Below are positions 10,732-60,426 of a stretch of 64,000 nucleotides of DNA, in pieces; positions within the stretch are counted from its first letter, which is position 1; every line of letters starts with the position of its first letter. This DNA is from an uncultured Caldilineales bacterium (GTDB lineage Bacteria > Chloroflexota > Anaerolineae > JAAEKA01), in assembly GCA_937907455.1 (NCBI GenBank), contig CALESQ010000082.1:10898-74897 (forward strand), read 5' to 3'. Below the pieces are notes generated by a model that had not been told where the DNA came from, ran no database searches, and worked only from the letters and a program-made list of their open reading frames with translations. Made by a program: the position numbers and the translations under genes.

Positions 10732-11060
10732 TCAAATATGACTTTGACCCAACGCGATACGGATCAGTGATAGCCGGCACGATGGTGTCGGCTTGAGCGC
10801 CCCCTGGGCTTTCAGCCTGCGGGGTGCTGCGCAAAAACGCCCCAGCACGGGGTCATATTCGCAGCGCCATAGTTCCGTCTGGCGCACACCGCTCGAGTTG
10901 GTGGTGATAGCGGTGGAGGTCAGGTGGTCGTTGAGCAGGTAGAACGTGTTGCCGCCAGTGCGCATTGCGACGCGGACGGCTCCGGCGTAGTAGTCCCTTG
11001 GGGAGGCTACGCACTACTTGCGCACGGTCGTCCGGTTGTCGCGCTCGTAGTAGGCGTCGA
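10732..11060 (-). pseudogene. RHS/YD-repeat core fragment (remnant A), disrupted by a 23-nt insertion with an in-frame TAG and a 35-nt junction insertion; the toxin tip is almost entirely deleted
   Basis: Translation: ...YERDNRTTVRK*CVASPRDYYAG...FYLLNDHLTSTAITTNSSG...YDPVLGRF followed by the hairpin insertion at 10799-10833 and then a short ADTIVPAITDPY remnant. Confidence 0.6.
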
Positions 11061-11062
11061 CC

Positions 11063-11476
11063 TCACGAATTCTCTGCCAACCACCCCAGGAAAGCCGCCG
11101 GAGTGACGATGCGGATACCGTGATGCTCTCCCAAGTCCAAGAGGTGGTGGTCACCGGAAACGATCATCGATGCTCCGGCGACAAGGGCGCACTCAATAAA
11201 CATGTCGTCGTCCCGGTCGTTGTGAACCACATGCAAGTTGCCGGTGATCTCCACCTGCTGACCGAAGCGCCGAAAGTCGTAAACTGCGGCACGGACGTTG
11301 TCGGCCGAAAAACCGAACTTGTCGTAGAGTTTTTCGGAGAACTCGGCCAGCATCTCGCGGCAATAGACCACATCAACCAATCCCGCTCGGGCCGCCAGCC
11401 AGCACTTGTAGGCCGCGCCGCGCCAAAGCACGGCTGCGAGACGAACGTTGGTGTCAAAGACGACTTTGTCAGTCAC
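11063..11476 (-). CDS. PIN-domain toxin (TIGR00305-like) of a type II toxin-antitoxin pair
   Basis: 137 aa with acidic PIN residues (VFDTNV, HNDRDDDMFIE, VSGDHHL); overlaps the upstream small ORF by 8 nt. Confidence 0.7.
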   Translation of the reverse strand: MTDKVVFDTNVRLAAVLWRGAAYKCWLAARAGLVDVVYCREMLAEFSEKLYDKFGFSADNVRAAVYDFRRFGQQVEITGNLHVVHNDRDDDMFIECALVAGASMIVSGDHHLLDLGEHHGIRIVTPAAFLGWLAENS

Positions 11477-11723
11477 GGCGGTCTTCGTGTTTCAGCTCGT
11501 CGATGAGTTGCATACGTTCGTCTTCCGAAAGTGCATCCCAATCGAGACCTCGCTGCGCCGAGATGGCTCGCATGCGCTGATTTCCGTAGGCCACCAGGTT
11601 GTCCAGGTCTTCCAGGTCGGAGATGAGCGCCCGTAGCAACGCGTGTTTGCCGTTGGGCGTAAGTTGACGCGCCAAGCCGATCATTTGTGCCTCTGGTAGG
11701 GGGAGAAGAACCGTTGCTTCCAT
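11469..11723 (-). CDS. putative antitoxin partner of the PIN toxin
   Basis: 84-aa ORF immediately upstream and overlapping the PIN gene; typical TA gene order and size. Confidence 0.5.
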   Translation of the reverse strand: MEATVLLPLPEAQMIGLARQLTPNGKHALLRALISDLEDLDNLVAYGNQRMRAISAQRGLDWDALSEDERMQLIDELKHEDRRD

Positions 11724-11789
11724 GGAAAACGCCTCACACTGGGACCGGATGTCTATGCACTGATATCGCCAGGATAGATTTTACTATGG

Positions 11790-11930
11790 TTGGCGCTTGA
11801 TCGCAAACCGCATATCCATGACACTACTATCTGCCCGCCGCTGCTATTTGTGGTGATGGCGGTGGACGTCAGGCTTGTCTTGAGCATGGTCGAAAAATGG
11901 TCGTTGATTGGGTGCGCAGAGCGGATAGTG
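11790..11930 (-). pseudogene. short RHS core remnant B (...LKTSLTSTAITTNSSG...)
   Basis: Shares the DHL-STAITTNSSG segment with the other RHS core fragments; flanking sequence is unrelated. Confidence 0.35.
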
Positions 11931-12012
11931 CCGCCGATGTGTTGATGCAAAGAGATGCACATCAACACACCGGCGGAGTACTCATTAGGTTGGTAATTAT
12001 CGGCCTTCTGCC

Positions 12013-12366
12013 CTATCTTCCAGCAACGCGTCGCCTCCTGAGCCATTCCACGACAAGCCATGCAATCAGCAGGTTGACGACCAGCGTCAGAGACAACCAG
12101 GCGATGCGATCGTCATGCTCCGCCACCAGCAATACAAGGATCGAGTTGACAATGAGCAGAGATACAGCATAGAACTGAGCGCCAAAACTGCCTGGGTCGA
12201 CGGCAGGTGTCCCGGGGTAGCCAGAAATCCAAGCAAGCCAAGTGGGTATTGGCACCGCATCTGAAGTTGATCTCGAGTATCGCTGCCTTGGGAAGGCCAC
12301 CAGCCATATTACGCCGAATCCTATAAAACCCAATACCCAGTCAGTAATTGCTTCACTCATTGCCAA
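12013..12366 (-). CDS. small membrane protein; putative immunity protein for the adjacent RHS toxin tip
   Basis: 117 aa with three TM helices; immediately downstream of and overlapping the tip at 12357-13067, the position typical for RHS immunity genes. Confidence 0.45.
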   Translation of the reverse strand: MAMSEAITDWVLGFIGFGVIWLVAFPRQRYSRSTSDAVPIPTWLAWISGYPGTPAVDPGSFGAQFYAVSLLIVNSILVLLVAEHDDRIAWLSLTLVVNLLIAWLVVEWLRRRRVAGR

Positions 12367-13620
12367 CGCGCGCGCCTCCCCTGTTTTTCTCTGGTAGGTT
12401 TTGACGGCGCGGGAGTGGCAGCTCTGCCCTGTGAGCGAGATGGCTGCTGGATTCTATCGATCACGGCACTCGCTGGAGCATTTGATGCTATGCCTCCTGC
12501 GAACGACCGAACCACCGCTGGAAAGGCAACCGCTGCGTTTGTCAAGTCCTCGCTAACGATATTACGCGCCTCGTCAGCCCAGCGAGACAACCAAGGCGAG
12601 GCCCTATCCGGTGGCAAGGGATTGGCGCTCTTCAATGGCCCGATTATCCTCGCGGCCACGGATCCAAGTCCGACACTAACCATCAAATCAGCAGGATTGA
12701 CTTGCCGGCCATTCACTGCTTGACTTGCCAAGTATTGTGCGCCGCTCGCCACGGCGTTTGTTACCACAGCCCCCGCCACGGTGGTTGCGGTCAATGGAGC
12801 AAAGAACCCCACAGTAGCACTAACCATCGTTGCCACCCTTACATCCTTCCAATTGATCGTATCCCACCTTTCTTCCAGCGTTCCATCGCTACCAAGCATT
12901 TGACCGGCTAAGGACCCCACAAAACCGACTGTGCCAACGATCAAGCCAGACACTGCCATTGCAGCGATGGGTATGAAAAAATGGCCGCTGGGATCGCTAT
13001 ACTTGAGCGGGTTATTCAGCACATAGCTGTACCTGTTCAGCGCCTGCGGATTGCCCGGCTCCGGCACGATGGTGTCGGCTTGAGCGCCCCTGGGCTTTCA
13101 GCCTGCGGGATGCTGCGCAAAAACGTCCCAACTGCGCATTATACCAGCGCACGTTGTAAAAGCACAGCCCGATTGATGCCTTCGGCAGTCTTCCCACTGA
13201 CCTGTAAAGCGCCACGTGATGGGTGTCGTGCCGGTGCTGAAGCGCGTCTTGTTTTAGGGTTTGTACAGCACCTTGCCTAACAAGCTGCCATCAGTCCCGT
13301 TGGCCGTAACGTTGGTGCCGCCTAAGTGGTCACCGAGCAGGTAGCAGGTCTCCACGCCGCTACGCATCGCCACGCGCGCGCTACCGGCGTAGTAGTCCCT
13401 CCGGGAGGCTACGCACTACTTTCTGACCGTCGTGCCGTTGTCGCGCTCGTAAGTGTTGCCGATGTAGACGGTGGTCACCCCGCCCACCGTGGCCTTGACG
13501 CGCTTGCCGTCGCCGTCGTAGACATAGGTGGCGTTCACACCGCTGCCCGTGATGCTGGTCACGTGGTTCTCCACGTCGTAGGCCAGGGTCACGTCCTGGT
13601 TGCCGTTGATGCGCCAAGCT
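12357..13620 (-). pseudogene. orphan RHS C-terminal cassette C: core fragment (13068-13620, carrying both the 23-nt and 34-nt insertions) plus a toxin tip (12357-13067) with predicted membrane-spanning/glycine-rich segments
   Basis: Core: YD repeats (YVYDGDGKRV, TYERDNGT), RK*CVASRRDYYAGSARVAMR, RWYNAQLGRF then the 34-nt insertion at 13086-13119. Tip starts PEPGNPQALNRYSYVLNNPLKYSDPSGH. Confidence 0.6.
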
Positions 13621-13625
13621 CAATC

Positions 13626-13668
13626 ATGGGCCTCACAGACTCTCCGGTCTGCGAGGCCCATGATGCGT
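13626..13668. other. perfect 11-bp-stem palindrome (tcatgggcctc ... gaggcccatga) at the upstream boundary of cassette C
   Basis: Seen directly; it separates the cassette D immunity gene from the cassette C core fragment. Confidence 0.5.
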
Positions 13669-13691
13669 GCTTTCGCCAGTGGTTCAGCCAT

Positions 13692-14201
13692 TTACTCCTG
13701 GTCTTCATCCATGGACTGTTCGAGGGCGTCGATCAATCGGGATAGCCTGATCTCCAGCGCCTTATGCCCCGATGTGCCGGCCTCTGGCATGCCTGTGATT
13801 TCTGCCGCCGCCACACGCGTCTCGGCGATGGGATGTCGCGATCCATCATCGTCCTGGCTGTACTCCACGGTCCATGCGTGGCCGAACATGTCGATGCGGC
13901 CGAAGCACGGAACGGGCCAATCTTCACGATTGAAGGGACGATCAGTAAGAATCAACGGCCACTCGCCATAGATGATCCCCAGATCGCCGAACCATTCGAC
14001 AAGGATAGCTTGCGACGAGCTGAGATGATTGATATCTGTGGCCGTGGGTGGCAGCTTATAGTGAAATGGAAAGAAGTATCCTAGACCTCCTTTCGTCTTC
14101 AGACTACCACGAACGATAATGCCTGCAGCGTACCCGCCGCTCTGCAATGGTACAGCAAACCATTGTCCTTCACGATACCGGATCCGCTTGGTTCTTGTCA
14201 T
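13692..14201 (-). CDS. putative immunity protein for the GIY-YIG-like RHS tip (cytoplasmic, 169 aa)
   Basis: ORF immediately downstream of the tip at 14214-14936 in the same orientation; no TM segments and no detectable catalytic motifs. Confidence 0.4.
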   Translation of the reverse strand: MTRTKRIRYREGQWFAVPLQSGGYAAGIIVRGSLKTKGGLGYFFPFHYKLPPTATDINHLSSSQAILVEWFGDLGIIYGEWPLILTDRPFNREDWPVPCFGRIDMFGHAWTVEYSQDDDGSRHPIAETRVAAAEITGMPEAGTSGHKALEIRLSRLIDALEQSMDEDQE

Positions 14202-14213
14202 CGGAGACTCCTG

Positions 14214-14988
14214 CTACTGCATTCCGGCCCGCCGTGCTGCGTTGATATACTGGGCGCGTCGTGGATTGCGCGGACTGATAGGTTGGATCTTGTTCTGGGG
14301 GGGCTGATAGCGGTCATAGAGTATCTGTTCTGCGCCTCGTTGCACCTCGCGACTATTCGATTGAAACTCGGCATTGAATCGCAACTCGGGAAAACTGCGA
14401 CCGTGTTCAGCTTCTCGTCGAGCCAGGTTATTGGTGCGACCTGTATATTGCACGTTGCCATTGGCCGGATCTCGCAACGTGTAGACGCCTCCAGATGGAG
14501 TGTTGGCAGTCGCCGCGGCGGGTGTAGTCGGTGCGCGGTTGGCAGCCCTCGGCACATCACTCGCCCGGTTCGCCAGCTCGCCAGCATTCTCAGCCTGCCG
14601 GACCACCGCGGCGGCCTCATCGGCGTGGGTGGCGACCTCGATGATCTCATCAACGTGCGCTGCCGCCTTCGCCACATCATCGGCGTGCGCCAACCCGCGC
14701 ACCAACAGCCCGCCCCCGGTCGCTACCGGGATGATCAGCCCCGCGACATCGGCCGCCAACGAAAGACCACCGATCCACGTCAGGCCATTGGTCTTGATGT
14801 CGGAGATGTCATAGGCGATAAACGCAATGTCGAACGCGCTCTCGACCCAATGACCGCTTGGATCGGTATACTTGAGCAGATTACCGTTTACATAGCTATA
14901 CCTGTTCAGCGACTGCGGGTCGCCCGGTTCCGGCACGATGGTGTCGGCTTGAGCGCCCCTGGGCTTTCAGCCTGCGGGGTGCTGCGCA
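14214..14988 (-). pseudogene. orphan RHS C-terminal cassette D: only the junction (with the 34-nt insertion at 14955-14988) plus a tip carrying a GIY-YIG-like nuclease domain
   Basis: Tip begins PEPGDPQSLNRYSYVNGNLLKYTDPSGH. C-terminal GGVYTLRDPANGNVQYTGRTNNLARREAEHGR fits the GIY-(10-11)-YIG...R...E nuclease pattern. Only about 12 nt of RHS core are retained upstream of the insertion. Confidence 0.55.
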
Positions 14989-15015
14989 AAAACGTCCCAG
15001 CACGGATCGCTTCTC

Positions 15016-15639
15016 TTATTCGAAGTCAATGACTAGGGGCCGTCCATCCTTCGGCCATGCATGCGCCGGCTTGTCATCTGGAAAGACTTCGGCCAAGGTA
15101 CCAGGTTGTACTCGATTCAGAAGATTTAAACGAAAAGACGAATCGAGGCGGAGCGATGCTTGCCTGGGAGGAAAGAAGTAGTATTTCCATCCAGATGCGA
15201 CGATTCCCTGATCCTGCCAAAAAAGATCCACCCGGAGCCGAAAACTTTCCACATCCCGCCCATAGGTACCATAGTAGGAATCAGGTTGTCCCAAGCACGC
15301 TATCAGGTCACGCATGGTAGGACCTTTACCATTATAATCAATGTGCATGCCACTCAGTGTTGAATTCTTTAGATTTATCACATAGTTTGTCTTGCCGCTA
15401 CTCCATGAGATTTTTTGAAATGTTCGATCGACATGCAGACGATCTTCAGATACCTGGAGATATTGCGTAACCCAGGTTTGCATTTGATCCAACGAAACCG
15501 GTATGGTGAAGTAATCTTCCAGGCCAGTAGCAACCATTTCGCTACAATCACGTTGCGGAAGCCATCCGGTGCAGCTGGACAATAGAAAAACTATTAACAG
15601 AACAATATGTTTCGTTATGTGGTGGAATGAGGATTTCAT
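15016..15639 (-). CDS. lipoprotein; putative immunity protein for the HExxH toxin tip
   Basis: 207 aa with a lipobox (LLSSC); low GC (about 42%) versus 62% background; directly downstream of the tip gene with a 4-nt overlap. Confidence 0.5.
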   Translation of the reverse strand: MKSSFHHITKHIVLLIVFLLSSCTGWLPQRDCSEMVATGLEDYFTIPVSLDQMQTWVTQYLQVSEDRLHVDRTFQKISWSSGKTNYVINLKNSTLSGMHIDYNGKGPTMRDLIACLGQPDSYYGTYGRDVESFRLRVDLFWQDQGIVASGWKYYFFPPRQASLRLDSSFRLNLLNRVQPGTLAEVFPDDKPAHAWPKDGRPLVIDFE

Positions 15640-16820
15640 TGTAGGAATGCATTCATTATATTCATCTGGTAACGCAACTCTTGGCTCCAGTGCTCTCCCA
15701 GATGTTTCTGAATTTCAGTATTCTTATAGCCTGATACTCCCATAGTAACATCGTAAAAAACCCACACCGTCACCGCTTCGGCCCAGCGTTCCCAAGCGCG
15801 TACGCACCCTATACAGCTCTCGGCATAATCTGTCAGAGCAGTTCCGCTCCAGGCCATCGAGAACGGCTGGAGATGTGTTTGACCATAGCTTGTGGTACCT
15901 ACCCACATCCTGTTATGCCAATCAATGACGTGAGCCAGTTCATGGACTATGGTGGTTCGATTGTACAAATCATCGTTGACGAAAGGTATTTTTACATTTG
16001 AAGTGCCTGGAAGTAATGCGTTGGGACGCCCGAAAAACGATCCTTCCTTAATCGTTACTGGTCCGCCTAACAGCTTGCCAAGTTGCGCTAAACCGGCTTG
16101 TACAAGCCCTGATCCAAGTCTGCGTCCGAACTCAACCACACCTTGCCCCATGGCTGACATTTGTGCAGCATTCGACTGCCAATTCCATTGACCGGAAAAC
16201 GAGATGCCCGCTTCGGCTAACACTTCGTTAAGTATTCCTATATCGGCGAATGAGGCCAGGCCTGCTGCAGACCATCCGCTGCCGTTATCAAAGTACCCGT
16301 GCGCATTATACCAGCGATTCTTCCAGTACCATTCATTCTCCCAGCAGGCGTGGTCATCGCCAGCGCAGGCGGCATGGCCGCTGGGATCGCTATACTTGAG
16401 CGGGTTATTCAGCACATAGCTATACCTGTTCAGCGACTGCGGGTCGCCCGGCTCCGGCACGATGGTGTCGGCTTGAGCAAAACGTCCCAGCACGGGGTCG
16501 TAGAAGCGCGCGTTATAATACATCAACCCGCCGATGCCAGGGTCGCGCTGGCCGGTGAATGTATAGCTGGTCGGCAGTGCATTGCTGCCTCCGCTGCGCA
16601 GTGATCCCCACGGGTAGTAACGCTGTGCCGTGGAGGTGCTGGTCGCCGTGTTGTACGTGACATTGGTGCTGCCGAGATGGTCGGCAAACAAGTAGTGGAC
16701 CTGGTTCGCGCCGGTCGTGCCGTCCTGCACACGCATGGCAACGCGGCGGCCGGCGGCATGGTAGTAGCTGCGCCAGGTGTAGTTGGCCGGCAAGACGGCT
16801 ACGAGCGCCGGCTCCATCAT
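15636..16820 (-). CDS. orphan RHS C-terminal fragment with an intact core/tip junction and an HExxH metallopeptidase-like toxin domain
   Basis: ...YTWRSYYHAAGRRVAMR...YYLFADHLGSTNV...RFYDPVLGRFAQADTIVPEPGDPQSLNRYSYVLNNPLKYSDPSGH then a ~270-aa domain with HELAHVIDW. It has neither the 34-nt nor the 23-nt insertion. Only ~130 aa of core, so it is still an orphan without its own N-terminus. The tip region has lower GC. Confidence 0.6.
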   Translation of the reverse strand: MMEPALVAVLPANYTWRSYYHAAGRRVAMRVQDGTTGANQVHYLFADHLGSTNVTYNTATSTSTAQRYYPWGSLRSGGSNALPTSYTFTGQRDPGIGGLMYYNARFYDPVLGRFAQADTIVPEPGDPQSLNRYSYVLNNPLKYSDPSGHAACAGDDHACWENEWYWKNRWYNAHGYFDNGSGWSAAGLASFADIGILNEVLAEAGISFSGQWNWQSNAAQMSAMGQGVVEFGRRLGSGLVQAGLAQLGKLLGGPVTIKEGSFFGRPNALLPGTSNVKIPFVNDDLYNRTTIVHELAHVIDWHNRMWVGTTSYGQTHLQPFSMAWSGTALTDYAESCIGCVRAWERWAEAVTVWVFYDVTMGVSGYKNTEIQKHLGEHWSQELRYQMNIMNAFLQ

Positions 16821-16841
16821 AGATGGTCAATGTCATGGCGC

Positions 16842-17324
16842 TTACCCGCTCTTGCGGACCTGCCGACCCAGGTAACGAATCGCCACCCAAACAGCGAAAG
16901 TGATTATCACAATAGCCAGAGCGCTTCCATACGTCACACTCCGTTGATACGCTGGATCGCAGGCCAAGGACATGCGAGAGGCGCGCGCAGCGGATTGTGT
17001 TGAGATCAATACCGCGCATAACATGCGTTGAATCACCATGCTTCCGATCAAAGCTAACAAAGCTGTTAGCCATATAGCTAAATCCGCCAGGCAAGATGCA
17101 CCTCCCCATATCTGGTAGATCAAGATCGCTAGCAAACCACCGACAGTTAGGTAAAAAACTGTAAGTATCTGAAACGCTAGCGTTCCATTGGGATACAAAC
17201 CAATGACTGGAACAGATACGTTGATCACAGCCAGAATTACTGCCGCAGCAATTCCAAAACAGATGCTAAGGATAAATGCCCTGAACAACGCTGATCGGGC
17301 TGTCGGGTCGACGTCTAATCTCAT
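16842..17324 (-). CDS. four-TM membrane protein; putative immunity protein for the glycine-zipper tip
   Basis: 160 aa, hydrophobic, directly downstream of the tip at 17352-18140. Confidence 0.45.
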   Translation of the reverse strand: MRLDVDPTARSALFRAFILSICFGIAAAVILAVINVSVPVIGLYPNGTLAFQILTVFYLTVGGLLAILIYQIWGGASCLADLAIWLTALLALIGSMVIQRMLCAVLISTQSAARASRMSLACDPAYQRSVTYGSALAIVIITFAVWVAIRYLGRQVRKSG

Positions 17325-17351
17325 GAATGAGTCTCCTGAACCTTGACGACG

Positions 17352-18744
17352 CTATGGCCCCGTGTATCCAACTGCTTGCTGACTCCACTCTTGAACGGCA
17401 GCGTCAATGAGCTGCTGCAGGATCTCTGAAGCCACATCATATGTCCCGGCAGAGATTGCCTTCATTATGTTCTCCAGATGACTCGCAGACAAGTTCACTG
17501 TTCGTCCTTCGAGTACGATTTGGCCGCGCAGTACTCCATTGCCAGGCAGGAGCCGGATCATTGGGACGCCGCCCTTGAAGACCTGGTCACCCAACGAGTT
17601 CAGGATCGGGTTCATCAGCTTTTGCATCCCATATCCTGCACCTGCGGACACGCTGCCTCCAAGTGCATCAAAGGTCATAGTCTGGACATCCAGGAAACCA
17701 GCATCCAATGCGCTTTGGAGCAATGCATCATTATTCCAGCCCTGCCCATGCATCCATTGAACAAGTTGTTTGCTCCCACCCTCTGTCAACGCCGCAGCTT
17801 GTCCACCCAAAGCACCACCGACACCTCCCAGGGCCACTGTTCCATATACGCCAACGCCCAGATAGGTACCGATACCCAACGTCCCTCCGGCCACTGCCCC
17901 TCCCATAAATCCTGCTGCTACCTTGCCACCATCGACCTTAAGTGCTGCATCCCCGAATGACATTCCCGCATTTAGGTTGTTCATCACCTGGGGTACATAT
18001 GCGATTGCTGCACCAATCACGCCTCCGATTAATGCGGTCGCAAGCAGTGGAGAATGGCCGTCGCTATCAACGAACTTGATAGGGTTGTTAAGGACATAGC
18101 TATACCTGTTCAGCGACTGCGGGTCGCCCGGCTCCGGCACGATGGTGTCGGCTTGAGCGCCCCTGGGCTTTCAGCCTGCGGGGTGCTGCGCAAAAACGTC
18201 CCAGCACGGGGTCGTAGAAGCGCGCGTTGTAATACATCAACCCGCCGATGCCAGGGTCGCGCTGGCCGGTGAATGTATAGCTGGTCGGCAGTGCATTGCT
18301 GCCTCCGCTGCGCAGTGATCCCCACGGGTAGTAGCGTTGAGCCACGGTCTGGCCGTCACCGGCACGATAGCTCACGCTGCTGGAACCCAGGTGGTCGCTG
18401 AACAGATAGTAAACCTGGTTCGATGTTGTGCTGCGCACACGCATGGCAATGCGCTGCCCACCCAGGCTATAGTAGCTGCGCCAGACATGAGTAGCCGGTG
18501 GATTTACATCCGGTGCAGCAGCCGCATTCTCCACCAGCTCTGCCGGCTGCGCCGCCACTACAGGAGAGATGACCGCACCGGGTTGTACCTCACGAACAGC
18601 TTCTGGCATTACAGATTGCTGCATGGATGTATCCGCCTGACCGCCGGGGAGCGTATAGGTCACCACCAGTTTAGGTCTACGGGTGGCTGTACCGTTTTCG
18701 CGGCTGCCAAAGTAGTAGCTCATGATGGCGCTGTTCAGCGGCAA
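17352..18744 (-). pseudogene. orphan RHS C-terminal cassette F: core fragment (about 18141-18500, with the 34-nt insertion at 18159-18192 and no 23-nt insertion) plus a glycine-zipper-rich, membrane-active-type tip (17352-18140)
   Basis: Core: HVWRSYYSLGGQRIAMR...YYLFSDHLGSSSV...RFYDPVLGRF then the insertion. Tip: PEPGDPQSLNRYSYVLNNPIKFVDSDGH followed by GxxxG-rich hydrophobic segments. Confidence 0.6.
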
Positions 18745-18975
18745 CGTGGGTCGCAGCCGGCGTTACCATCCCTGCCAACAAAGAAACCGCCACTATCCAA
18801 AATTAACCGCGCAGTAAACCTGAAGTCTTCACAACTTTCCTCCGACAGCTTGTGAGTGTCTGTGCCCTGTTCCGGTCAACGGCGTTAGTCATAAGAAGAA
18901 CATGGCCCGCTTTATCTGCATTCGTCGCAGCATAGCGTAATTATAACAACGATTTGCAATAGCGACAAATATCAG

Positions 18976-19143
18976 GTTGTGTATGGATTTCGGTTGAAAT
19001 GTGTTGCCACCGAATTGAATTCGGTGTCTCAAGCCACGAAGCCCCTGCCGGGGCTTTCGGAGAGCGCCTGAGAGCGCTTCGTTCTCTGAACCGCAACCAT
19101 GTATTGTCCGGCTCTTGTCATTCAACCGAAAGTCGCACACTAC
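18976..19143 (+). mobile_element. MITE-like element, copy 1 (168 bp; ~25-bp imperfect terminal inverted repeats; flanked by the 9-10 bp direct repeat CAAATATCA(G))
   Basis: caaatatcag at 18966-18975 and again at 19144-19153. The ends are ggttgtgtatggatttcggttgaaatg and cattcaaccgaaagtcgcaca, which are inverted repeats. About 90% identical to the copy at 52180. Confidence 0.6.
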
Positions 19144-19237
19144 CAAATATCAGCCCGATTCGGATGACCACAAACTGCCCTCAGCCTGATTTCTGACAGC
19201 TAAGATGGCCCCAGCGCAGATAACAACGGACGCTGTG

Positions 19238-19996
19238 TCAGGCCTTTTCGGCAATACACAGCACCGAGGTGCCCACAGGCAACGAAACCACACGCATCAG
19301 CGCAGCTTCTGCCTGGCCCACACTGCTGAGAATACCGTTCAGCAACGGTGGCGCCGGCTCCATCTCCACCTGATAGGCGTCATTGTCGAAATGCGGCGAG
19401 GCCAATTCCGGCTCGGCCCGGTTGCGCCGTGCCAAAATCAGCCCGGCAGCCAGAGGAAATATAAAGAAATTATTGTAAGAGGCGCGCAACACCCGCAAAT
19501 GGTGGCGCTGCAACTTGTCTTTTAATTCAGCGCGCGTATAGCGCCGCTGGTGTGCATTGATCACGTCGTTGTGGCTCCACAGCGCCATCAGCGCAGGCAC
19601 AGTCACCACCAGCTTGCCCCCCGGCTTGAGTACGCGGTAGCATTCGCTGAACACGCCATGTTCATTGGGCACATGCTCAACCACATCCAACAGGGTAACA
19701 ATGTCGAAGCTGGCTGCCTCAAAGGGCAGATCGTCGGCACTGCCTTCCTGCACGTTGAAGCCGCGCTGCTGGGCCACTGTCAGCGCCGGTGAGTAGGTGT
19801 CTACCCCGACTACCTCGCCATAATGGCTAAGGTGGTGCATCATGTTGCCTGCGCCGCAGCCTACATCCAGCACGCGGCGGTGGTGCGCACCGCTGCCTGC
19901 ATAACGATCCAGATAGCCCAGAATGGCACGGGTACGGCTGGCAAACCACCAGTGGCGGTCTTCATCCAGCACAAGGTTCATAGGAGTAGAGGTCAT
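19238..19996 (-). CDS. class I SAM-dependent methyltransferase
   Basis: VLDVGCGAGNM glycine-rich SAM motif and the LKPGGKLVV motif. Confidence 0.8.
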   Translation of the reverse strand: MTSTPMNLVLDEDRHWWFASRTRAILGYLDRYAGSGAHHRRVLDVGCGAGNMMHHLSHYGEVVGVDTYSPALTVAQQRGFNVQEGSADDLPFEAASFDIVTLLDVVEHVPNEHGVFSECYRVLKPGGKLVVTVPALMALWSHNDVINAHQRRYTRAELKDKLQRHHLRVLRASYNNFFIFPLAAGLILARRNRAEPELASPHFDNDAYQVEMEPAPPLLNGILSSVGQAEAALMRVVSLPVGTSVLCIAEKA

Positions 19997-27205: not shown

Positions 27206-27710
27206 ACCTGCGATCCTGTTTGATCTGCCATTTAAGCGGGTTTTGGATGATATAACGGCGAATGGCGTGCAAGGCGCGCTGGTTGCGAATGATGCGTTCG
27301 TAATAGTTGCGTTTCCACACTGCGGTTCCCTGCGTCTTGCGCAGGCGGTTGATCTTGCGTGCAGATTCGGTTTTGAAACCGCGAATGACTTCGGTCACGC
27401 TATGACGTTTGGGCGCAGGGGTTCGCCGTGTGCGCGGTTCTTCCAGCAAGATAAAGATCGCGTGAATATGATCGGGCATCAACACAAATTGGTCTAGTTG
27501 TAAGTAGGGGTAGTGCTTGGGGAGCGCGGTGAGTACCATGTGTACCAGATGACCGTAACGACTGGGATGAAATACGCCATCCACAACGCTGCCGAGGATC
27601 GGCTTGCGGTTTTTAACAACGATGGTGATGAAGTAGCCCCCCGGTTGGCTGTAGTCATAACCCTTAAGACGGATGGAGCGCCGATGATGACGCGACGGAT
27701 CATATGGCAT
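27180..27710 (-). CDS. REP-associated tyrosine transposase (RAYT; IS200/IS605-like TnpA_REP)
   Basis: 176 aa from [12 protein letters not shown]; HIHAIF (HuH motif) and YYERIIRN (catalytic Tyr); GGAGGG RBS upstream. The listed 270-aa ORF continues into the REP array only because the repeats contain no stop codons. Confidence 0.8.
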
Positions 27711-27730
27711 GAGGTCCCTCCTGTCTGAGC

Positions 27731-28945
27731 GTGGAATCAGGGTCTGGGCAGGTGCGCCGTGGTAAGCGACGAATCCGCGTGAGCATGGGATCAGGGTCTG
27801 GGCAGGTGCGCCGTGGTAAGCGGCGAATCTGCGTGAGTGTGGGATCAGGGTCTGGGCAGGTGCGCCGTGGTAAGCGACGAATCCGCGTGAGCGTGGGATC
27901 AGGGTCTGAGGGCAGGTGCGCCGTGGTAAGCGACGAATCCGCGTGAGCGTGGATGCCGCCCTGGCAGCGAGTCGACGTCTGCGGCGGCGCACCTGCCCTC
28001 ACGCGTGGCGCCGTGGTAAGCGGCGAATCCGCGTGAGCGTGGAATCAGGGTCTGGGCAGGTGCGCCGTGGTAAGCGGCGAATCCGCGTGAGTGTGGATGC
28101 CGCCCTGGCAGCGAGTCGACGTCTGCGGCGGCGCACCTGCCCTCACGCGTGGCGCCGTGGTAAGCGGCGAATCCGCGTGAGCGTGGAATCAGGGTCTGGG
28201 CAGGTGCGCCGTGGTAAGCGGCGAATCCGCGTGAGTGTGGATGCCGCCCTGGCAGCGAGTCGACGTCTGCGGCGGCGCACCTGCCCTCACGCGGTGCGCC
28301 GTGGTAAGCGGCGAATCCGCGTGAGTGTGGATGCCGCCCTGGCAGCGAGTCGACGTCTGCGGCGGCGCACCTGCCCTCACGCGTGGCGCCGTGGTAAGCG
28401 GCGAATCCGCGTGAGCGTGGATGCCGCCCTGGCAGCGAGTCGACGTCTGCGGCGGCGCACCTGCCCTCACGCGTGGCGCCGTGGTAAGCGGCGAATCCGC
28501 GTGAGCGTGGAATCAGGGTCTGGGCAGGTGCGCCGTGGTAAGCGGCGAATCCGCGTGAGTGTGGATGCCGCCCTGGCAGCGAGTCGACGTCTGCGGCGGC
28601 GCACCTGCCCTCACGCGCGGCCCTGGCAGCGAGTCGACATCTGCGGCAGCGCACCTGCCCTCACGCGCGGCGCCGTGGTAAGCGACGAATCCGCGTGAGC
28701 GTGGATGCCGCCCTGGCAGCGAGTCGACGTCTGCGGCGGCGCACCTGCCCTCACGCGTGGCGCCGCGGTAAGCGACGAATCCGCGTGAGCGTGGATGCCG
28801 CCCTGGCAGCGAGTCGACATCTGCGGCGGCGCACCTGCCATCACGCGCGGCGCCGTGGTAAGCGACGAATCCGCGTGAGCGTGGATGCCGCCCTGGCAGC
28901 GAGTCGACGTCTGCGGCAGCGCACCTGCCCTCACGCGCGCGCTCG
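27731..28945. repeat. REP/REPIN (BIME-like) array of about 17 tandem units built from two unit types (about 54 nt and about 90 nt); both carry GGCAGGTGCGCCG or its reverse complement plus GTGG heads
   Basis: Seen directly. Unit A: gtggRatcagggtctgggcaggtgcgccgtggtaagcgRcgaatccgcgtgagc. Unit B: gtggatgccgccctggcagcgagtcgacgtctgcggcggcgcacctgccctcacgcgtggcgccgtggtaagcggcgaatccgcgtgagc. Inverted REP pairs form REPIN hairpins. The array is adjacent to the RAYT gene. Confidence 0.8.
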
Positions 28946-28950
28946 TGCCC

Positions 28951-29646
28951 TTACGGGGACGGAGGAGCTAGTGCTGCGCGCCGAGCGATGGCCGCTGTCG
29001 CGGCATCACGCACACGCCAGTCTTCACGTTTATCGTCGCGATGCGTAACCAGCGCTTTCTCAACCTCGGCATCGCCCCATTTAGCCAGCCCCAGCGCAGC
29101 GGCACGACGCACCATAGGAGTTTTATCACTGTTCAGCAGCTTCAACAACGTTACCTGCACATGCGGAGCTGCCGGCATACCATCTTTTGTAGCAGGCAGG
29201 GGAGCCATGCGCGCTAACGCTTCGCCAGCGCTTTGGCGTACCGCAGAGTCGCGACTGAGCAGCAGTACCACTAATGCCTCGACGCTGTCATCACGGGTGG
29301 GCATTGCACCCAACCCATCGGCAGCAGCGGCCTGTACCGCGGATTTTGGTGATGAAGCAGCTTTCAGCAACACAGCTCGACTTGCACTGCTATCTAGTGC
29401 AGCCAGCGTCAACGCAGCTTCCGAACGCACAATCGGATCAGCCGCATCCAGCAGATCGCCCAATGCGGTGATTTCGTCGCGCCCTGCACCGGTCTCGATC
29501 AGAGTTCGCATGGCGTGCAGACAACGCGCGGCATAGCCGCTGGTCAGATCGGCCAGCAACGCGTGCCGCTGCGCGGCATCCAGCTTACGTCCTGCCGTAT
29601 CAACAGCAGCGATGCGTTGGAACCAGGTTTGAATTGTTTGTAGCAT
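28951..29646 (-). CDS. HEAT-repeat (PBS lyase-like) protein
   Basis: 231 aa of repeated A.VR..AA.ALG helical units. Confidence 0.55.
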   Translation of the reverse strand: MLQTIQTWFQRIAAVDTAGRKLDAAQRHALLADLTSGYAARCLHAMRTLIETGAGRDEITALGDLLDAADPIVRSEAALTLAALDSSASRAVLLKAASSPKSAVQAAAADGLGAMPTRDDSVEALVVLLLSRDSAVRQSAGEALARMAPLPATKDGMPAAPHVQVTLLKLLNSDKTPMVRRAAALGLAKWGDAEVEKALVTHRDDKREDWRVRDAATAAIARRAALAPPSP

Positions 29647-51240: not shown

Positions 51241-52080
51241 ATGCGCAGCGATCACCCTCTCTTCAAGCAATACCCGGTGGACAGCCAGGTGCTTATCGCA
51301 GGCGAACATTGTCCCAGCCCTTATCACATCTACGATGGTTCGATTCTGTTCATCGGTGGCACGGTGGCTGGTACGACAGCGCGCCAGCTTCTGGCTAACG
51401 AGCGGCTCGCCCCCATCATGGATCAAAATGATCGGGCACTGGCCGCGCTTTGGGTCTGCGATTTCACCGAGGCTAATCTGGGGCCGCATCACGAACTACA
51501 AATCTCCCTGTTCGCCTCCGTTGATCCCGTGCCACCGGTGCGCGCCCATCCGTTTGCCATCCATCGGACGCTGGTCAACGACCGCGCAACGCGCATGGTG
51601 TGTCACGGGCTTTGGAACAATACCGCCAAAGTGGTGGGCTACAACACTCAACATCTCGGCTTGAACGCGCGTCGGGGCCACAGCGACATCACGCGGGGCC
51701 GCGGGCGCTGGCAGTTCCGGGTGAGCGACGACAACGGGCTGGTAGCAACCGGCGATCTGGCGCTGCCGGCGCGGGCTGCGCCGGTGCAACTGGCAGCGAT
51801 GATGCAGCATATCGGCGTCAAGGGCCTGCTTCGCTCCCTGCGCACGCCCTACGTCCACGTACCTGTGGTCAATACGCGCAACCGCTTTGCCGACGATAAC
51901 CGGGTGGCGCATACCTATACCCGAAACGATAACCAGGTCATTCGACGGTTCACCGCGCAGGATCAGCTTTCAATTCACTACCCGCAAGCGGCGGTGCTGG
52001 ATTTCGCGCCGGACTTTGTCCAGCACAACGAGGGCGTGCGCTTTGTCTATCTGCGACCAGAGCCGGAAGGCCCGGCTTGA
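51241..52080 (+). CDS. hypothetical protein (possibly acetoacetate decarboxylase-like fold)
   Basis: 279-aa ORF with coding-like composition; no firm motif. Confidence 0.35.
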   Translation: MRSDHPLFKQYPVDSQVLIAGEHCPSPYHIYDGSILFIGGTVAGTTARQLLANERLAPIMDQNDRALAALWVCDFTEANLGPHHELQISLFASVDPVPPVRAHPFAIHRTLVNDRATRMVCHGLWNNTAKVVGYNTQHLGLNARRGHSDITRGRGRWQFRVSDDNGLVATGDLALPARAAPVQLAAMMQHIGVKGLLRSLRTPYVHVPVVNTRNRFADDNRVAHTYTRNDNQVIRRFTAQDQLSIHYPQAAVLDFAPDFVQHNEGVRFVYLRPEPEGPA

Positions 52081-52179
52081 GCGGTCAACCAACAGCGCTG
52101 CTGCTATCTTATCCACGTCTGTAGTCGGGGGGCATCGTGCTTTGGGCACGCGCGGGCCGCGCCCGCGTCCTGAAACTTG

Positions 52180-52344
52180 GGTTGTGTATGGATTTCGGTT
52201 GAAATGTGTTGCCACCGAATCGAATTCGGTGTCTCAAGCCACGAAGCCCCTGTCGGGGCTTTCGGAGAGCGCCTGAGTGCGCTTCGTTCTTTAAGCCGGA
52301 ACCATTGATTGTCCGGCTCTTATAATTCAACCGAAAGTCGCACA
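52180..52344 (+). mobile_element. MITE-like element, copy 2 (flanked by the 8-bp direct repeat GAAACTTG)
   Basis: gaaacttg at 52172-52179 and again immediately after the element; internal hairpins (accgaatcgaattcggt, gaagcccctgtcggggcttc, agccggaaccattgattgtccggct); lies 260 nt upstream of ccr. Confidence 0.6.
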
Positions 52345-52606
52345 TTATCGAAACTTGCCAAAAGCGCCCGCTTATGACACAATGCGTCATGACGTTAATC
52401 TGGTAACGTTCCGCTTTTTTTGGGTAGGTGATTGTCATGCAACCGTGGGCCTCGACGATGATAGCCCAGTCTGCTTGCGCGGCGCACAGGCGCTTTTTTT
52501 CGCCTGCACTGATTGATCGCGCCCTTCCCCTGCCTGCTTGCTCCCTTTCCGCTTCCCATTATTTTCCCCCCGTAAACCTGATACTGTGCGCAAGGAGGCC
52601 ACAACG

Positions 52607-54880
52607 ATGAGCGAACTCAAGGAATTATATGCCGTTGGCGAACAGCCACCGGTAGGCCATGTACCGCCTCAGATGTATGCCTGGATGGTGCGCCCGGAAC
52701 GCTTTGGCGAGCCGACTAAGGCCTGGCAGGTCGAAGTGATTGACACGCCGGAGCCTGCCGACGACGAAGTCCTCGTGTATGTGATGGCCGCGGGCGTCAA
52801 CTACAACAATGTTTGGGCTGGCCTGGGCATTCCGGTGGACGTCATCGGCGCGCGCAACAAGGCCGGCGAGCCGGAGCGCTTCCACATCGGCGGCAGCGAC
52901 GCCAGCGGCATTGTTTACAAAGTTGGCAAGGATGTCACCACCCACAAGGTCGGCGACGAGGTGGTCATCCACTGCGGCACCTGGAGCCGCGACGATCCCT
53001 GGGTCAAGGCGGGCGAAGACCCGATGTACAGCCCAACCTTCCGTATTTGGGGCTATGAAACCAACTGGGGCAGCTTTGCGCAGTTCACCAGGGTGCAGGC
53101 GCACCAGTGCCTGCCGCGCCCCCAGCACCTCACCTGGGAGCAATCCGCAGCCTATATGCTGGTAGGCGCGACCGCCTACCGCATGTTATACGGCTGGGCC
53201 GAACACGCCCTGCGCAAGGATGACATCGTGCTGATCTGGGGCGGCGCGGGTGGTCTCGGCTCGATGGCGATTCAGATCGTCAAGGCCGCAGGCGGCAAGG
53301 CCATCGCCGTGGTCAGCGAAGATGACAAGTTCGACTACTGCAAGAACCTCGGCGCAGTAGGCTGCATCAACCGCAAGAATTTCAACCATTGGGGCATGTT
53401 GCCACACTGGAAAGACACCGTCGGCTACAACGAATGGCTAAAGGGCGTGCGCGGCTTCGGCAAGGCTATTTGGGACGTGCTGGGCGAGCGCAAAAGCCCG
53501 CGTATCGTCTTTGAACACCCCGGCGAGACCACCATCCCCACCTCGATCTTTGTCTGCGACACCGGCGGTACGGTGGTGATCTGTGCCGGCACCACCGGCT
53601 ACAACGCCACGGTAGACCTGCGCTACCTGTGGATGCGCCAGAAACGGCTGCAAGGCTCACATTTTGCCAACGACGAGCAATCCAAGGGCTTCAACGATCT
53701 GGTGCTGGCTGGCAAGGCCGATCCGTGCATGTCGCGTGCCTTCACCTGGGACGAATTGCCCTTCTCGCATCAACTGATGTACGAGAACAAGCATCCCTTC
53801 GGCAATATGTCTATTCTCATCGGCGCGCCCGATTTTGGCCTGGGCATTCACAAACCCGAACCTGCGGGCGCGGTACATGTGGAAGCACCCGCCGAGCCGC
53901 GTGCCGCCGAGAACTTCTATCGTGCGCCGCTGCATCCTGTAGATGAAGCCAAACCGGAAACCGCCGTGGTTGAAGACACCCGCCTGGTGCGCGAGATGAT
54001 GCACTACGGCGTGATTGCCTGTTCGCTGGGCACGCCGATAGACGAAGTAGCCCAACGTATGAGCGACTATCATATACATGCTGTTGTGGTTACCGATGCC
54101 GAAGGCTATGCTGCGGGCATTGTATCACAAACCGATGTAGTGTTGGCGCGGCAAGGGCGCGCCAGCCAGGAACTGGCCGCTCTGACTGCCGGCGACGTGA
54201 TGAGTCGCCATGTGGTGAGCTGTACACCCGACACCACCATCTCTGAGGCCATCACCCTGATGACCCGCAACCATATTCACCGGCTGGTTGTGGCCGACAA
54301 GCGTGGTGCCAAACCGTGGCCGGTAGGAGTATTGAGCATGACCGATATTATCACTTATGGCATGCAAGCACCGCACAGCGGCGCACCTGCCATGTCGCTG
54401 CCGCCCTCACTGATGGCAAGCGACATCTACGAGCCTATGACCCTTGAACCCAGCCTGGAAGACCTGAGCGCGCTGCACGAAGCCAACACCGTGAGCGATA
54501 TCATGCACATCGGTGTGGTGAGCTGCCCCCGCTCCGCCTCGGTGATGGATGCCGCACGCAAAATGCTCGATCAGGGCATCCATGCCGTGGTGGTGGTAGC
54601 CGATGATGGTCACGCGGTGGGCGTGGTGTCGCAAACCGATGTAGTGCTGGCACGCCAAGGACGCACCGTAGAGCAGGCAGCAGCGCTTAGCGTGGGCGAT
54701 ATCATGACTCCCACACTGGTAAGCTGCACCCGCGACCGTGCCCTTTCCGAAGCCATCACTCTGATGACGCGCAACCGGGTACACCGCCTGGTAGTAGTGG
54801 AAGATCAGAACGGCAAGCTGATGCCGGTGGGCATTCTCAGCATGACCGACGTGATCCGCCAGTTCTTCAGCAAAAACTAA
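52607..54880 (+). CDS. ccr: crotonyl-CoA carboxylase/reductase fused to four C-terminal CBS domains
   Basis: N-terminal 440 aa match Ccr along the whole length ([122 protein letters not shown]). C-terminal 330 aa are two Bateman modules (four CBS repeats). AAGGAGG RBS 8 nt before the ATG at 52607. Confidence 0.8.
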
Positions 54881-57698: not shown

Positions 57699-59396
57699 AT
57701 GACAGACCCCCATTTCCACCCCCTTGCCGATGCGCTGCACGCCTGGGAAACCGGCGATCTGGCAAAGTCCACCGAGCGCGCGCCGGAACGCGCGGAAACC
57801 GAGGCGTTTCCGCGGCTGGCAACACCACTCGATGCCGGGCCGCAGCCGCCCGCTGCGGCTGATCAGCAATGGTATCTGGACAAGCTGAGCTTTCCCGGCC
57901 AGTATCCCTTCACGCGCGGGGTGCAGCCCACCATGTACCGTTCCCGCTTCTGGACGATGCGCCAGTATGCGGGCTATGGCACGGCGGCCGAGGCCAACGA
58001 GCGCTTCAAATACCTGCTGGGCCAGGGTCAAACCGGCCTTAGCATCGCCTTCGACCTGGCGACACAGATCGGCTACGACAGCGACGACCCGCTGGCTGCG
58101 GGCGAGGTGGGGCAGGCAGGCGTGGCGATTGACTCGCTGGCTGACATGGAGGCGCTACTCGACGGCATTCCGCTGGACAAGGTCAGCATCAGCATGACCA
58201 TCAACGCGCCGGCCAGCGTGCTGTTGGCGATGGTGATCGCCGCGGGCGAGGCGCGCGGCGTGCCTGCGGCCAAGCTCACCGGCACGATCCAGAACGACAT
58301 CCTGAAGGAATACGTCGCGCGCGGCACCTACATCTTCCCGCCCGGCCCCAGCGTGCGCCTGGCCGCGGATACCATCGCATTCTGCGCGCGCGAAGTGCCG
58401 CGCTGGAACGCGATCAGTGTCAGCGGCTACCACATCCGCGACGCGGGCAGCACCGCCGCGCAGGAGATGGGCTTTGCCATCGCCAATGCGCTGGCCTATC
58501 TGGACGCAGTGCTGGCGCGCGGCGTAGCGATTGATGACTTCGCGGGCCGCATCTCCTGGATTTTCAACACGCAAAACAACTTCTTCGAGGAAGTCGCCAA
58601 GTACCGCGCCCTGCGCCGCCTGTGGGCCACGCTGCTCAAGGAACAGTACGGCGCGCAAAAAGCCTCCAGCATGACCCTGCGCACGCACGTTCAGACCGGT
58701 GGCGCGACCCTCACCGCGCAGCAGCCGCTGAACAACATTGCCCGCGCCGGCTTTCAGGCTCTCGCCAGCGTGCTGGGCGGCATCCAAAGCATGGCTTTGA
58801 GCTGCTACGACGAGGCGTTGGCGCTGCCCACCGAGGAAGCACAGGCCACCGCGCTGCGCACGCAGCAGATCATCGCCCACGAAATCGGCGTGTCCGAGGT
58901 AATTGATCCGCTGGCAGGGTCGTATTACGTCGAAAGCCTCACGGACCAGCTCGAAGCCGAAGCGCTGGCCCTGATCAACAAGGTGCAGGAGCTGGGCGGC
59001 TCGGTGCAAGCCATCGAAAGCGGCTGGATGCAGCAGCAGATCGCGGATTCGTCCTGGCGGATGCAAAAGGCTGTCGAGGCGGGCGAGCAGATCATCGTCG
59101 GCGTCAACGCCTACCAGTCGCCCGGCGAGGAACGGCCCGTGGGCATCTTCCGCCCCGACCCCGAAACCTACCGCACCCAGCACGCCCGCCTGGAGCAGCT
59201 CAGGGCGACGCGCGACCAGGCCACGGTGCAAGCTGCGCTCAGCCGGTTGCGCGCCGTAGCCCAGGCCCCCGCTGGCCCCGACAGCAACCTGATGCCGCCC
59301 ATTCTCGACGCGGTGCGCGCCTACGCCACGCTGGGCGAAATCTGCGGCGTGCTGCGCCAGGAATGGGGCGAATACGAACCGCCGACTGTTATTTAA
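57699..59396 (+). CDS. methylmalonyl-CoA mutase family catalytic (large) subunit with no B12-binding domain (IcmA/HcmA/Ecm-like)
   Basis: 565 aa; FPGQYPFTRG, MYRSRFWTMRQYAGYG, GQTGLSIAFD, TIQNDILKEY and RTHVQT match the mutase TIM-barrel domain; no Rossmann B12 domain. Confidence 0.85.
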   Translation: MTDPHFHPLADALHAWETGDLAKSTERAPERAETEAFPRLATPLDAGPQPPAAADQQWYLDKLSFPGQYPFTRGVQPTMYRSRFWTMRQYAGYGTAAEANERFKYLLGQGQTGLSIAFDLATQIGYDSDDPLAAGEVGQAGVAIDSLADMEALLDGIPLDKVSISMTINAPASVLLAMVIAAGEARGVPAAKLTGTIQNDILKEYVARGTYIFPPGPSVRLAADTIAFCAREVPRWNAISVSGYHIRDAGSTAAQEMGFAIANALAYLDAVLARGVAIDDFAGRISWIFNTQNNFFEEVAKYRALRRLWATLLKEQYGAQKASSMTLRTHVQTGGATLTAQQPLNNIARAGFQALASVLGGIQSMALSCYDEALALPTEEAQATALRTQQIIAHEIGVSEVIDPLAGSYYVESLTDQLEAEALALINKVQELGGSVQAIESGWMQQQIADSSWRMQKAVEAGEQIIVGVNAYQSPGEERPVGIFRPDPETYRTQHARLEQLRATRDQATVQAALSRLRAVAQAPAGPDSNLMPPILDAVRAYATLGEICGVLRQEWGEYEPPTVI

Positions 59397-59790
59397 GTAG
59401 ACAAGTACACAAGTAGACAGGTAGACAAGTAGACAGGTAGACAAGTACATAAGTAGACAGGTAGACAAGTAGGCAAGTAGACAAGTACATAAGTAGACAG
59501 GTAGACAAGTACATAAGTAGACAGGTAGACAAGTAGACAGGTAGACAAGTACATAGAGGACCATTTTGTGTACTCATCCCCGTGTACTTGTGTACTCATT
59601 CCCGTGTACTTGTGTACTCACTCCTTGTGTACTCATCCCTTGTGTACTTGTGTACTCATCCCTTGTGTACTCATCCCTGTGTACTTGTGTACTCATCCCT
59701 TGTGTACTCATCCCCTGTGTACTTGTGTACTCATCCCTTGTGTACTTGTGTACTCATCCCTGTGTACTCTCCTCAGGAGACCCCTATGCT
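59397..59790. repeat. two adjacent octamer-type tandem repeat arrays filling the mutase-hydratase intergenic region (GTAGACAa/GTACAtAa, then GTGTACTt/GTGTACTCATCCCt)
   Basis: Seen directly at 59398-59555 and 59565-59775; both contain the palindromic core GTAC. Confidence 0.8.
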
Positions 59791-60247
59791 CGACCAAAGT
59801 TACATTGGCAAGAAGCTGCCGACGATCCGCTATCAGGTGGATGCCAGCAAGATCCGTGAGCTGGCCGGTGCGCTGGGCGACGATAACCCGCTGTTCCATG
59901 ACAAAGCCGCCGCGCAGGCCGCGGGCTATGATGACATTGTAGCACCGCTGACTTTTCCCACGCTGTTCCGCTTCTGGGGTGGCACGGCCGCGGGCGCAGA
60001 AACGCGCAGCCTGCTGCAACAGATGGGCGCGAACGTGCTGCGCATCCTGCACGGCGAAGAAGAATACGAATACTTCAGCCCCTTGCAGCCGGGTGATGAC
60101 ATCAGCGGCGAACTGGAAATCCTCAGCATTGATCGCAAAGAGGGCAGTTCCGGCGCGATGGATATGGTCAAAACGCAGGCTACTTACCGCGATCAAAACG
60201 GCGATGTGAAGGCGATCACCCGCGCCACGATGGTGGTGCGGTGGTAA
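59786..60247 (+). CDS. MaoC-like dehydratase, N-terminal-type (non-catalytic hot-dog) subunit
   Basis: 153 aa from MLDQSYIGKK; AGGAGA RBS; a hot-dog fold partner gene follows. Confidence 0.7.
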   Translation: MLDQSYIGKKLPTIRYQVDASKIRELAGALGDDNPLFHDKAAAQAAGYDDIVAPLTFPTLFRFWGGTAAGAETRSLLQQMGANVLRILHGEEEYEYFSPLQPGDDISGELEILSIDRKEGSSGAMDMVKTQATYRDQNGDVKAITRATMVVRW

Positions 60248-60313
60248 CTCGTAACTCGTAACTCGTAACTCGTAACTCGTAACTCGTAACTCGTAACTCG
60301 TAACTCGTAACTC
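60244..60313 (+). repeat. (GTAACTC)x10 perfect heptanucleotide tandem repeat; its first unit overlaps the TAA stop of the preceding gene
   Basis: Seen directly; related CGTNTTA x4 at 60352-60378 and gtaactcgtaacc at 57603-57615. Confidence 0.9.
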
Positions 60314-60426
60314 GAAGCATACCATCCTTGCAGTCTGTGATGTCAAATCCGTGTTACGCATTACGTATTACGTGTTACAGAACGCTGATAGGTCCGCCTG
60401 CCATTGGCATGGAACGAGGATAATTC

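Follow-up and report, generated by a model that had tools for sequence, protein, structure and literature searches.

The 64-kb stretch of DNA analysed here (the window) carries two copies of what is very probably one 170-bp non-autonomous MITE, with ends that mimic those of an IS256-family insertion sequence (IS) of Anaerolineae/Caldilineales. The element has inserted as a 170-bp unit at at least three unrelated sites, duplicating 8 bp of target. Repeat finding in the window placed the two copies, which share the same orientation, in a single two-member family (D8) spanning 18975-19147 and 52180-52352 with 92% identity, and in the alignment the similarity ends abruptly on both sides. A BLAST comparison of the two gave 92.9% identity over 168 nt. 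The boundaries of the element were fixed by comparing both window copies with a third copy from another genome (L025) and with the full-length IS, which set the non-coding copy A at 18975-19144 and the intergenic copy B at 52180-52349, both on the plus strand and each 170 bp long. The elements start with GGTTGTG and finish with CACTACC (copy A) or CATTATC (copy B). A first-pass annotation, made from the letters alone, had described a MITE-like element in two copies of about 90% identity. Both copies lie where it put them and are about 92-93% identical; its lengths of 168 and 165 bp have to be replaced by 170 bp for both elements, since its boundaries were off by 1-5 nt, with the right end of copy B drawn 5 nt short.

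The ends of the MITE are imperfect terminal inverted repeats (TIRs) of about 24-27 nt, in line with the imperfect repeats of about 25 bp initially proposed. The 24-nt arms are 79% complementary and share a perfect 11-nt core (TTTCGGTTGAA/TTCAACCGAAA). In copy A, the left TIR occupies 18975-19001 on the plus strand (GGTTGTGTATGGATTTCGGTTGAAATG) and the right TIR 19121-19144 on the minus strand (reverse complement GGTAGTGTGCGACTTTCGGTTGAA). The left TIR of copy B, at 52180-52206 on the plus strand, is identical to that of copy A, and its right TIR lies at 52326-52349 on the minus strand (reverse complement GATAATGTGCGACTTTCGGTTGAA). When the TIR pattern GTGTRYGRMTTTCGGTTGAA was searched with up to three mismatches, the matches in the 64 kb were exactly the four element ends. 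The expectation was 0.03 matches, and four matches were reached in none of 100 dinucleotide shuffles. The MITE lacks coding capacity and showed no similarity to the transposase in a BLAST comparison. One minus-strand frame is open across the element, and its sole database match is another copy of the same element, as described below.

Each window copy is bracketed by a perfect 8-bp direct repeat, and the sequence of this repeat differs between the copies. Copy A is flanked by AAATATCA at 18967-18974 and 19145-19152, and copy B by GAAACTTG at 52172-52179 and 52350-52357. The flanking duplications seen in the first pass are therefore real, although they are 8 bp long and not 9-10 bp. The repeat given there as CAAATATCA(G) consists of the 8-bp duplication plus one terminal base of the element on each side, as a comparison with copy B, the full-length IS and the L025 copy shows: in every one of them the termini are GG...CC/TC and the duplication is 8 bp long.

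Relatives that lack the element show the insertion of copy B. Two such relatives, L060 and L062, were found through homologues of the 279-aa protein encoded beside copy B (82% and 70% identity) and show the same gene order. In the alignment, both read ...GCGTCCT-[A/G]AAACTTG-CCAAAAG... at the ccr site, with a single 8-mer and no element; in the window, the 8-mer GAAACTTG is followed by 170 bp and then by the 8-mer again. The locus in L060 and L062 is a textbook empty site for copy B. An empty site for copy A was not found among the near-identical methyltransferase variants L080, L081 and L082, of which L080 and L081 carry the copy A element and L082 diverges directly past the methyltransferase stop and is hence uninformative. 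A scan of one genome per species identified the third copy in the Anaerolineae MAG JBAQWV01 (L025:6779-6948), where an element 92% identical over its full length sits in unrelated flanks with a duplication matching at seven of eight positions (GCAGTCTG / GTAGTCTG). A protein-database search with the peptide read across the MITE gave one match, a spurious 74-aa ORF (P0146) that reads across a copy with different flanks, and the fourth site is seen only in this form. BLAST of a plasmid collection gave no match to the MITE, and viral contigs scanned with the TIR pattern gave 0 matches. The empty site for copy B, the third copy elsewhere, and an IS with matching ends and an 8-bp duplication together bear out the MITE reading of the first-pass annotation. 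It had proposed comparing empty sites in relatives, and for copy B this comparison returned two relatives with one 8-mer and no element. Conservation at orthologous positions without duplications, which it had named as pointing away from a MITE, is the opposite of what was found.

The interior of the element contains perfect hairpins, as first described. In copy A they span 19008-19056 (CACCGAATT/AATTCGGTG at 19008-19026 and AAGCCCC/GGGGCTT at 19039-19056), and copy B also carries a perfect hairpin, AGCCGGA/TCCGGCT. On either strand, the predicted fold is more stable than that of shuffled controls by about 5 SD (z about -5). This folding, the several perfect hairpins and the promoter-like hexamers that adjoin both copies are what a conserved structured ncRNA or cis-regulatory element (a leader, sRNA or terminator module), placed by chance near ccr and the rhs array, might be expected to show. 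We nevertheless regard such an element as highly improbable. The low folding energy is explained by the TIRs and palindromes and is alike on both strands, so that it provides no specific evidence for an RNA. Among four copies, none of the 62 predicted pairs showed a compensatory change, and the substitutions between copies either lie in loops or, in several cases, disrupt stems. Rfam returned no family at the gathering threshold across the whole window, nor any meaningful match at E<=5 around both copies. The flanking duplication differs from copy to copy, and relatives with the same flanking genes precisely lack the element and retain one 8-bp target, an empty site by which the structured-RNA reading is largely refuted. 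In all likelihood, the hairpins of the interior are passenger palindromes.

In the scan of one genome per species, the end sequence of the MITE also turned up at the ends of many contigs in two Anaerolineae MAGs, where it runs into ...GGAGACCGCCTCGC-ATG (MASVLPERRSV). A metagenome scan identified the full-length IS (L048:1524-2953), which is 1,430 bp long, has imperfect TIRs of about 27 nt and encodes a single 436-aa ORF. This ORF matched Pfam PF00872 (Transposase_mut) with E=1.3e-31 and 110 bits against a cutoff of 21. Its best NCBIfam model was the IS256 family at 133 bits, followed by ISH6 at 57 bits. Because 133 bits lies below the IS256 equivalog cutoff of 150 bits, the transposase is best described as a divergent IS256 member. 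An IS with matching TIRs, which the first-pass annotation had suggested looking for, thus exists in related genomes as a 1,430-bp IS256-type element. IS256-family members make 8- or 9-bp target repeats (PMC3189936), and a perfect 8-bp duplication, CGCCGCCA, brackets the IS copy carried by L065, a contig of 128 kb. No duplication was seen on the short IS-bearing contigs L048, L066 and L067, perhaps because several copies have collapsed into one in their assembly.

The correspondence between the MITE and this IS holds separately for each end. The left end of the MITE has one mismatch in the first 26 nt to IRL, the transposase-start end of the IS (L048/L065/L068); for the left TIR of copy A this amounts to 26 of 27 positions, with BLAST giving 96% over positions 1-26. 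The right end agrees with IRR, the transposase-stop end, at 22 of 24 positions (right TIR of copy A), and both carry the IRR-specific GAC variant. The consensus of the IS and MITE ends in the end-sequence table is GGTAGTGTATGnnTTTCGGTTGAAAT. In the BLAST comparison the interior of the MITE showed no similarity to the IS, and the two ends are all that they have in common.

Duplications of 8 bp also occur outside IS256, the transposase of the IS weakly matches the ISH6 and ISL3 models as well, and the partner IS was not found in the window or within 7 kb past either end. On these grounds, the MITE might have been moved by another family that makes 8-bp duplications (ISL3, IS6, IS66, IS1595 or ISH6), with a coincidental or convergent likeness to IS256 ends. 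We consider this very unlikely, since the ends match, with one mismatch in 26 on the left and 22 of 24 on the right, an IS whose sole ORF is a PF00872 transposase, and the end-specific GGA/GAC variants match too, with a negligible chance expectation. MITEs often arise by internal deletion, and here only the ends match the IS, as would be expected if the two copies were independently decayed, internally deleted IS copies and not a 170-bp transposing unit. There is very little chance that this is so, as the same 170-bp structure with the same non-IS interior occurs at at least three unrelated sites in at least two genomes, with its own duplications. Identical interiors at unrelated sites (L025, P0146) exclude independent deletions.

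The same ends were also found around other short elements with unrelated interiors in MAG JBAQWV01 (L007, L034, L019 and L004). The transposase family is abundant in metagenomes, with 941 clusters at E<=1e-30, most of them on contigs about as long as the IS (about 1.4-2 kb). Neither the transposase nor a full-length IS was found in the 64-kb window, searched by tblastn, or in the 7 kb past either end, and no transposase was present among the contigs retrieved from samples and MAGs of the window's organism. In another organism, contigs L070-L079 (for example L071:1283-2592) contain a frameshifted IS copy with ORFs of 217 aa and 211/219 aa, fixed beside PIG-L and ATP-synthase genes across many samples, a decaying copy.

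IS256 elements transpose by a copy-out/paste-in mechanism through a circular intermediate. By analogy, the transposase of the IS would act in trans and bind the approximately 26-nt ends of the MITE, and the recognised end would consist of the conserved core TTTCGGTTGAA and the terminal GGTWGTGT. The MITE would then be mobilised by copy-out/paste-in via a circular intermediate, with staggered target cuts 8 bp apart. Copies A and B have diverged by about 7%, which indicates that the family has had no recent burst and may be inactive now. Copy B was present in every retrieved assembly of the window's organism, and the copy count is two in about 78 kb of this genome (the window and 7 kb beyond either end).

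On one side, copy A is neighboured by the stop codon of a class I methyltransferase gene on the minus strand (19238-19996). On the other side is the first rhs-like fragment (18100-18744, also on the minus strand), the nearest rhs-like ORF at a distance of about 230 nt. It had been suggested that copy A marks the breakpoint at which a parental rhs gene was lost. This idea is not supported by the locus, as the duplication is intact and excision of the element restores no ORF. The perfect duplication on both sides of copy A points to a simple insertion with no rearrangement at its ends since; a transposon-mediated deletion or recombination would be expected to leave mismatched flanks, and the flanks of copy A match. 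A gene interrupted by copy A was likewise considered and rejected, because in silico removal of the element and one duplication restored no reading frame.

The rhs array itself occupies 10774-18744 on the minus strand and contains five core-end repeats (CCGGCACGATGGTGTCGGCTTGAGCGCCCC) at 10774, 13061, 14930, 16454 and 18134; the C-terminal module that comes after the repeat differs in every case, and there is no full-length rhs gene upstream. Its first fragment (18100-18744) opens with a short stretch that resembles the end of another domain (…SYYFGSRENGTATRRPKLVVTY). In L082, which carries a methyltransferase of the same 90%-identity protein cluster, the DNA right after this gene (L082:3757-4194, compared with 18800-19237 of the window) is wholly different. 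This divergence indicates that the rhs array with copy A is a strain-variable region, of which the MITE is not the demonstrable cause. A promoter-like sequence, TTGTCG-17-TATAAT (10/12 matches, with a TG extension), is located at 18940-18968 on the minus strand and points toward the rhs-like fragments. It adjoins the left end of copy A and overlaps its target duplication.

Copy B lies between the 279-aa ORF (51241-52080) and a ccr-CBS gene with its ATG at 52607. This gene encodes a crotonyl-CoA-reductase-like ADH_N/ADH_zinc_N/CBS fusion and heads an acyl-CoA dehydrogenase/mutase/MaoC cluster. Copy B ends 257 nt upstream of the ccr ATG, close to the 260 nt estimated in the first pass. The best-conserved non-coding block of the interval between the 279-aa ORF and ccr, GAAACTTGCCAAAAGCGCCCGCTTATGACACAATGCGTCATG at 52350-52390, starts exactly at the insertion point of copy B. 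It is also present in the relatives with the empty site and holds a -35/-10-like TTGCCA-17-CACAAT with a TG extension. The last three bases of the right-hand target duplication begin the conserved -35-like TTGCCA. An ATGAC...GTCAT palindrome in this block could be an operator. The insertion of copy B has pushed all DNA upstream of the -35 away by 178 bp. On the downstream side of this promoter block, the leader of ccr (52390-52600) is unrelated to that of both relatives and contains, ahead of the ccr start, a terminator-like hairpin followed by a T-run at 52481-52494 (GGCGCACAGGCGCTTTTTTT); this region might act as an attenuator or be a leader that has been replaced.

Both insertions in the window (2/2) are located at the upstream edge of a -35-like hexamer, and in each the duplicated target overlaps the -35. 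The family may conceivably be more than junk, with promoter-upstream targeting or a co-opted regulatory or insulating role for the hairpin-rich element; the unrelated short interiors between IS256-type ends in a related MAG would then mean that new MITEs have arisen time and again in Chloroflexota through the capture of ends. We rate this proposal as unlikely. A further observation concerns the ccr-site copy in L052:3940-4109 (JGI 3300014348), which is a mosaic carrying copy A variants in its left half (alignment columns 42 and 74) and copy B variants in its right half. The mosaic may reflect gene conversion between the copies or polymorphism among strains.

The MITE also behaves as repeated DNA in assemblies. 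The window proteins are identical in MAG GCA_040275545.1 ('Caldilineales bacterium') and in several metagenome assemblies. Independent assemblies of this organism stop 27-55 nt inside the MITE (L053, L057, L058 and L059), and the L080 scaffold has an NN gap inside it. These breaks, together with the IS ends at contig ends, are the behaviour of repeated DNA, and the presence of the MITE accounts for the breaks of the organism's short-read assemblies at both places. Contig L058 includes exactly 30 nt of copy A at its right end, and copy B does not share this stretch. On the assumption that 31-mers were used for this assembly, the sample may tentatively be credited with another copy whose end is of the A type.

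Other repeats are also present in the window. A complex tandem array with periods of 54 nt and 90 nt (16 and 12 copies) occupies 27700-29027 in a region of about 64% GC and holds internal 30-nt inverted repeats; the array may encode a repetitive protein or may be non-coding. Dense short tandem repeats were found at 59355-59782 and 60230-60320, comprising 8-nt units (AAGTAGAC/AGGTAGAC), adjacent units of about 15 nt (TTGTGTACTCATCCC) and 7-nt GTAACTC arrays. The contigs of other assemblies start inside these repeats (L087 and L089), indicating that they break assemblies too.

Comparison with known systems places the partner IS close to the IS256 family (for example, IS256 of Staphylococcus and ISPsy17 of Pseudomonas syringae), with which it shares a single PF00872 ORF, TIRs of about 27 nt and an 8-bp duplication. 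The MITE shares with this family the ends and the 8-bp duplication; however, it lacks a transposase and has only the 24-26 terminal nucleotides in common. The partner transposase is itself divergent, and the hosts are uncultured Chloroflexota. The general class for comparison is that of the bacterial MITEs, such as the Correia/NEMIS elements of Neisseria, RUP of Streptococcus pneumoniae and MITEPsy1/2 of P. syringae (reviewed in PMC10969869). Like these, the window element is small, non-coding and intergenic, with IS-related TIRs, target duplications and a strong predicted secondary structure. In contrast to the TA duplication of Correia elements, the duplication of the window MITE is 8 bp, and its end sequences also point to a different transposase family. 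Correia elements have a known regulatory or RNA-processing role, whereas the window MITE has no demonstrated role of either kind. The 2024 review of prokaryotic MITEs makes no mention of IS256 or Chloroflexi (PMC10969869). In view of this silence, the family is probably undescribed, although of a well-known kind.

Our general understanding of transposition is unchanged by this MITE. It provides a clean bacterial case from the poorly studied uncultured Caldilineales/Anaerolineae, in which TIRs and an 8-bp duplication are accompanied by an empty site and a matching autonomous IS. It is also a repeat family to mask and annotate in such MAGs, given that a spurious 74-aa 'protein' read from it is already in databases. 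Finally, copy B borders the likely ccr promoter on its upstream side, where it could affect the regulation of the ethylmalonyl-CoA-type cluster.
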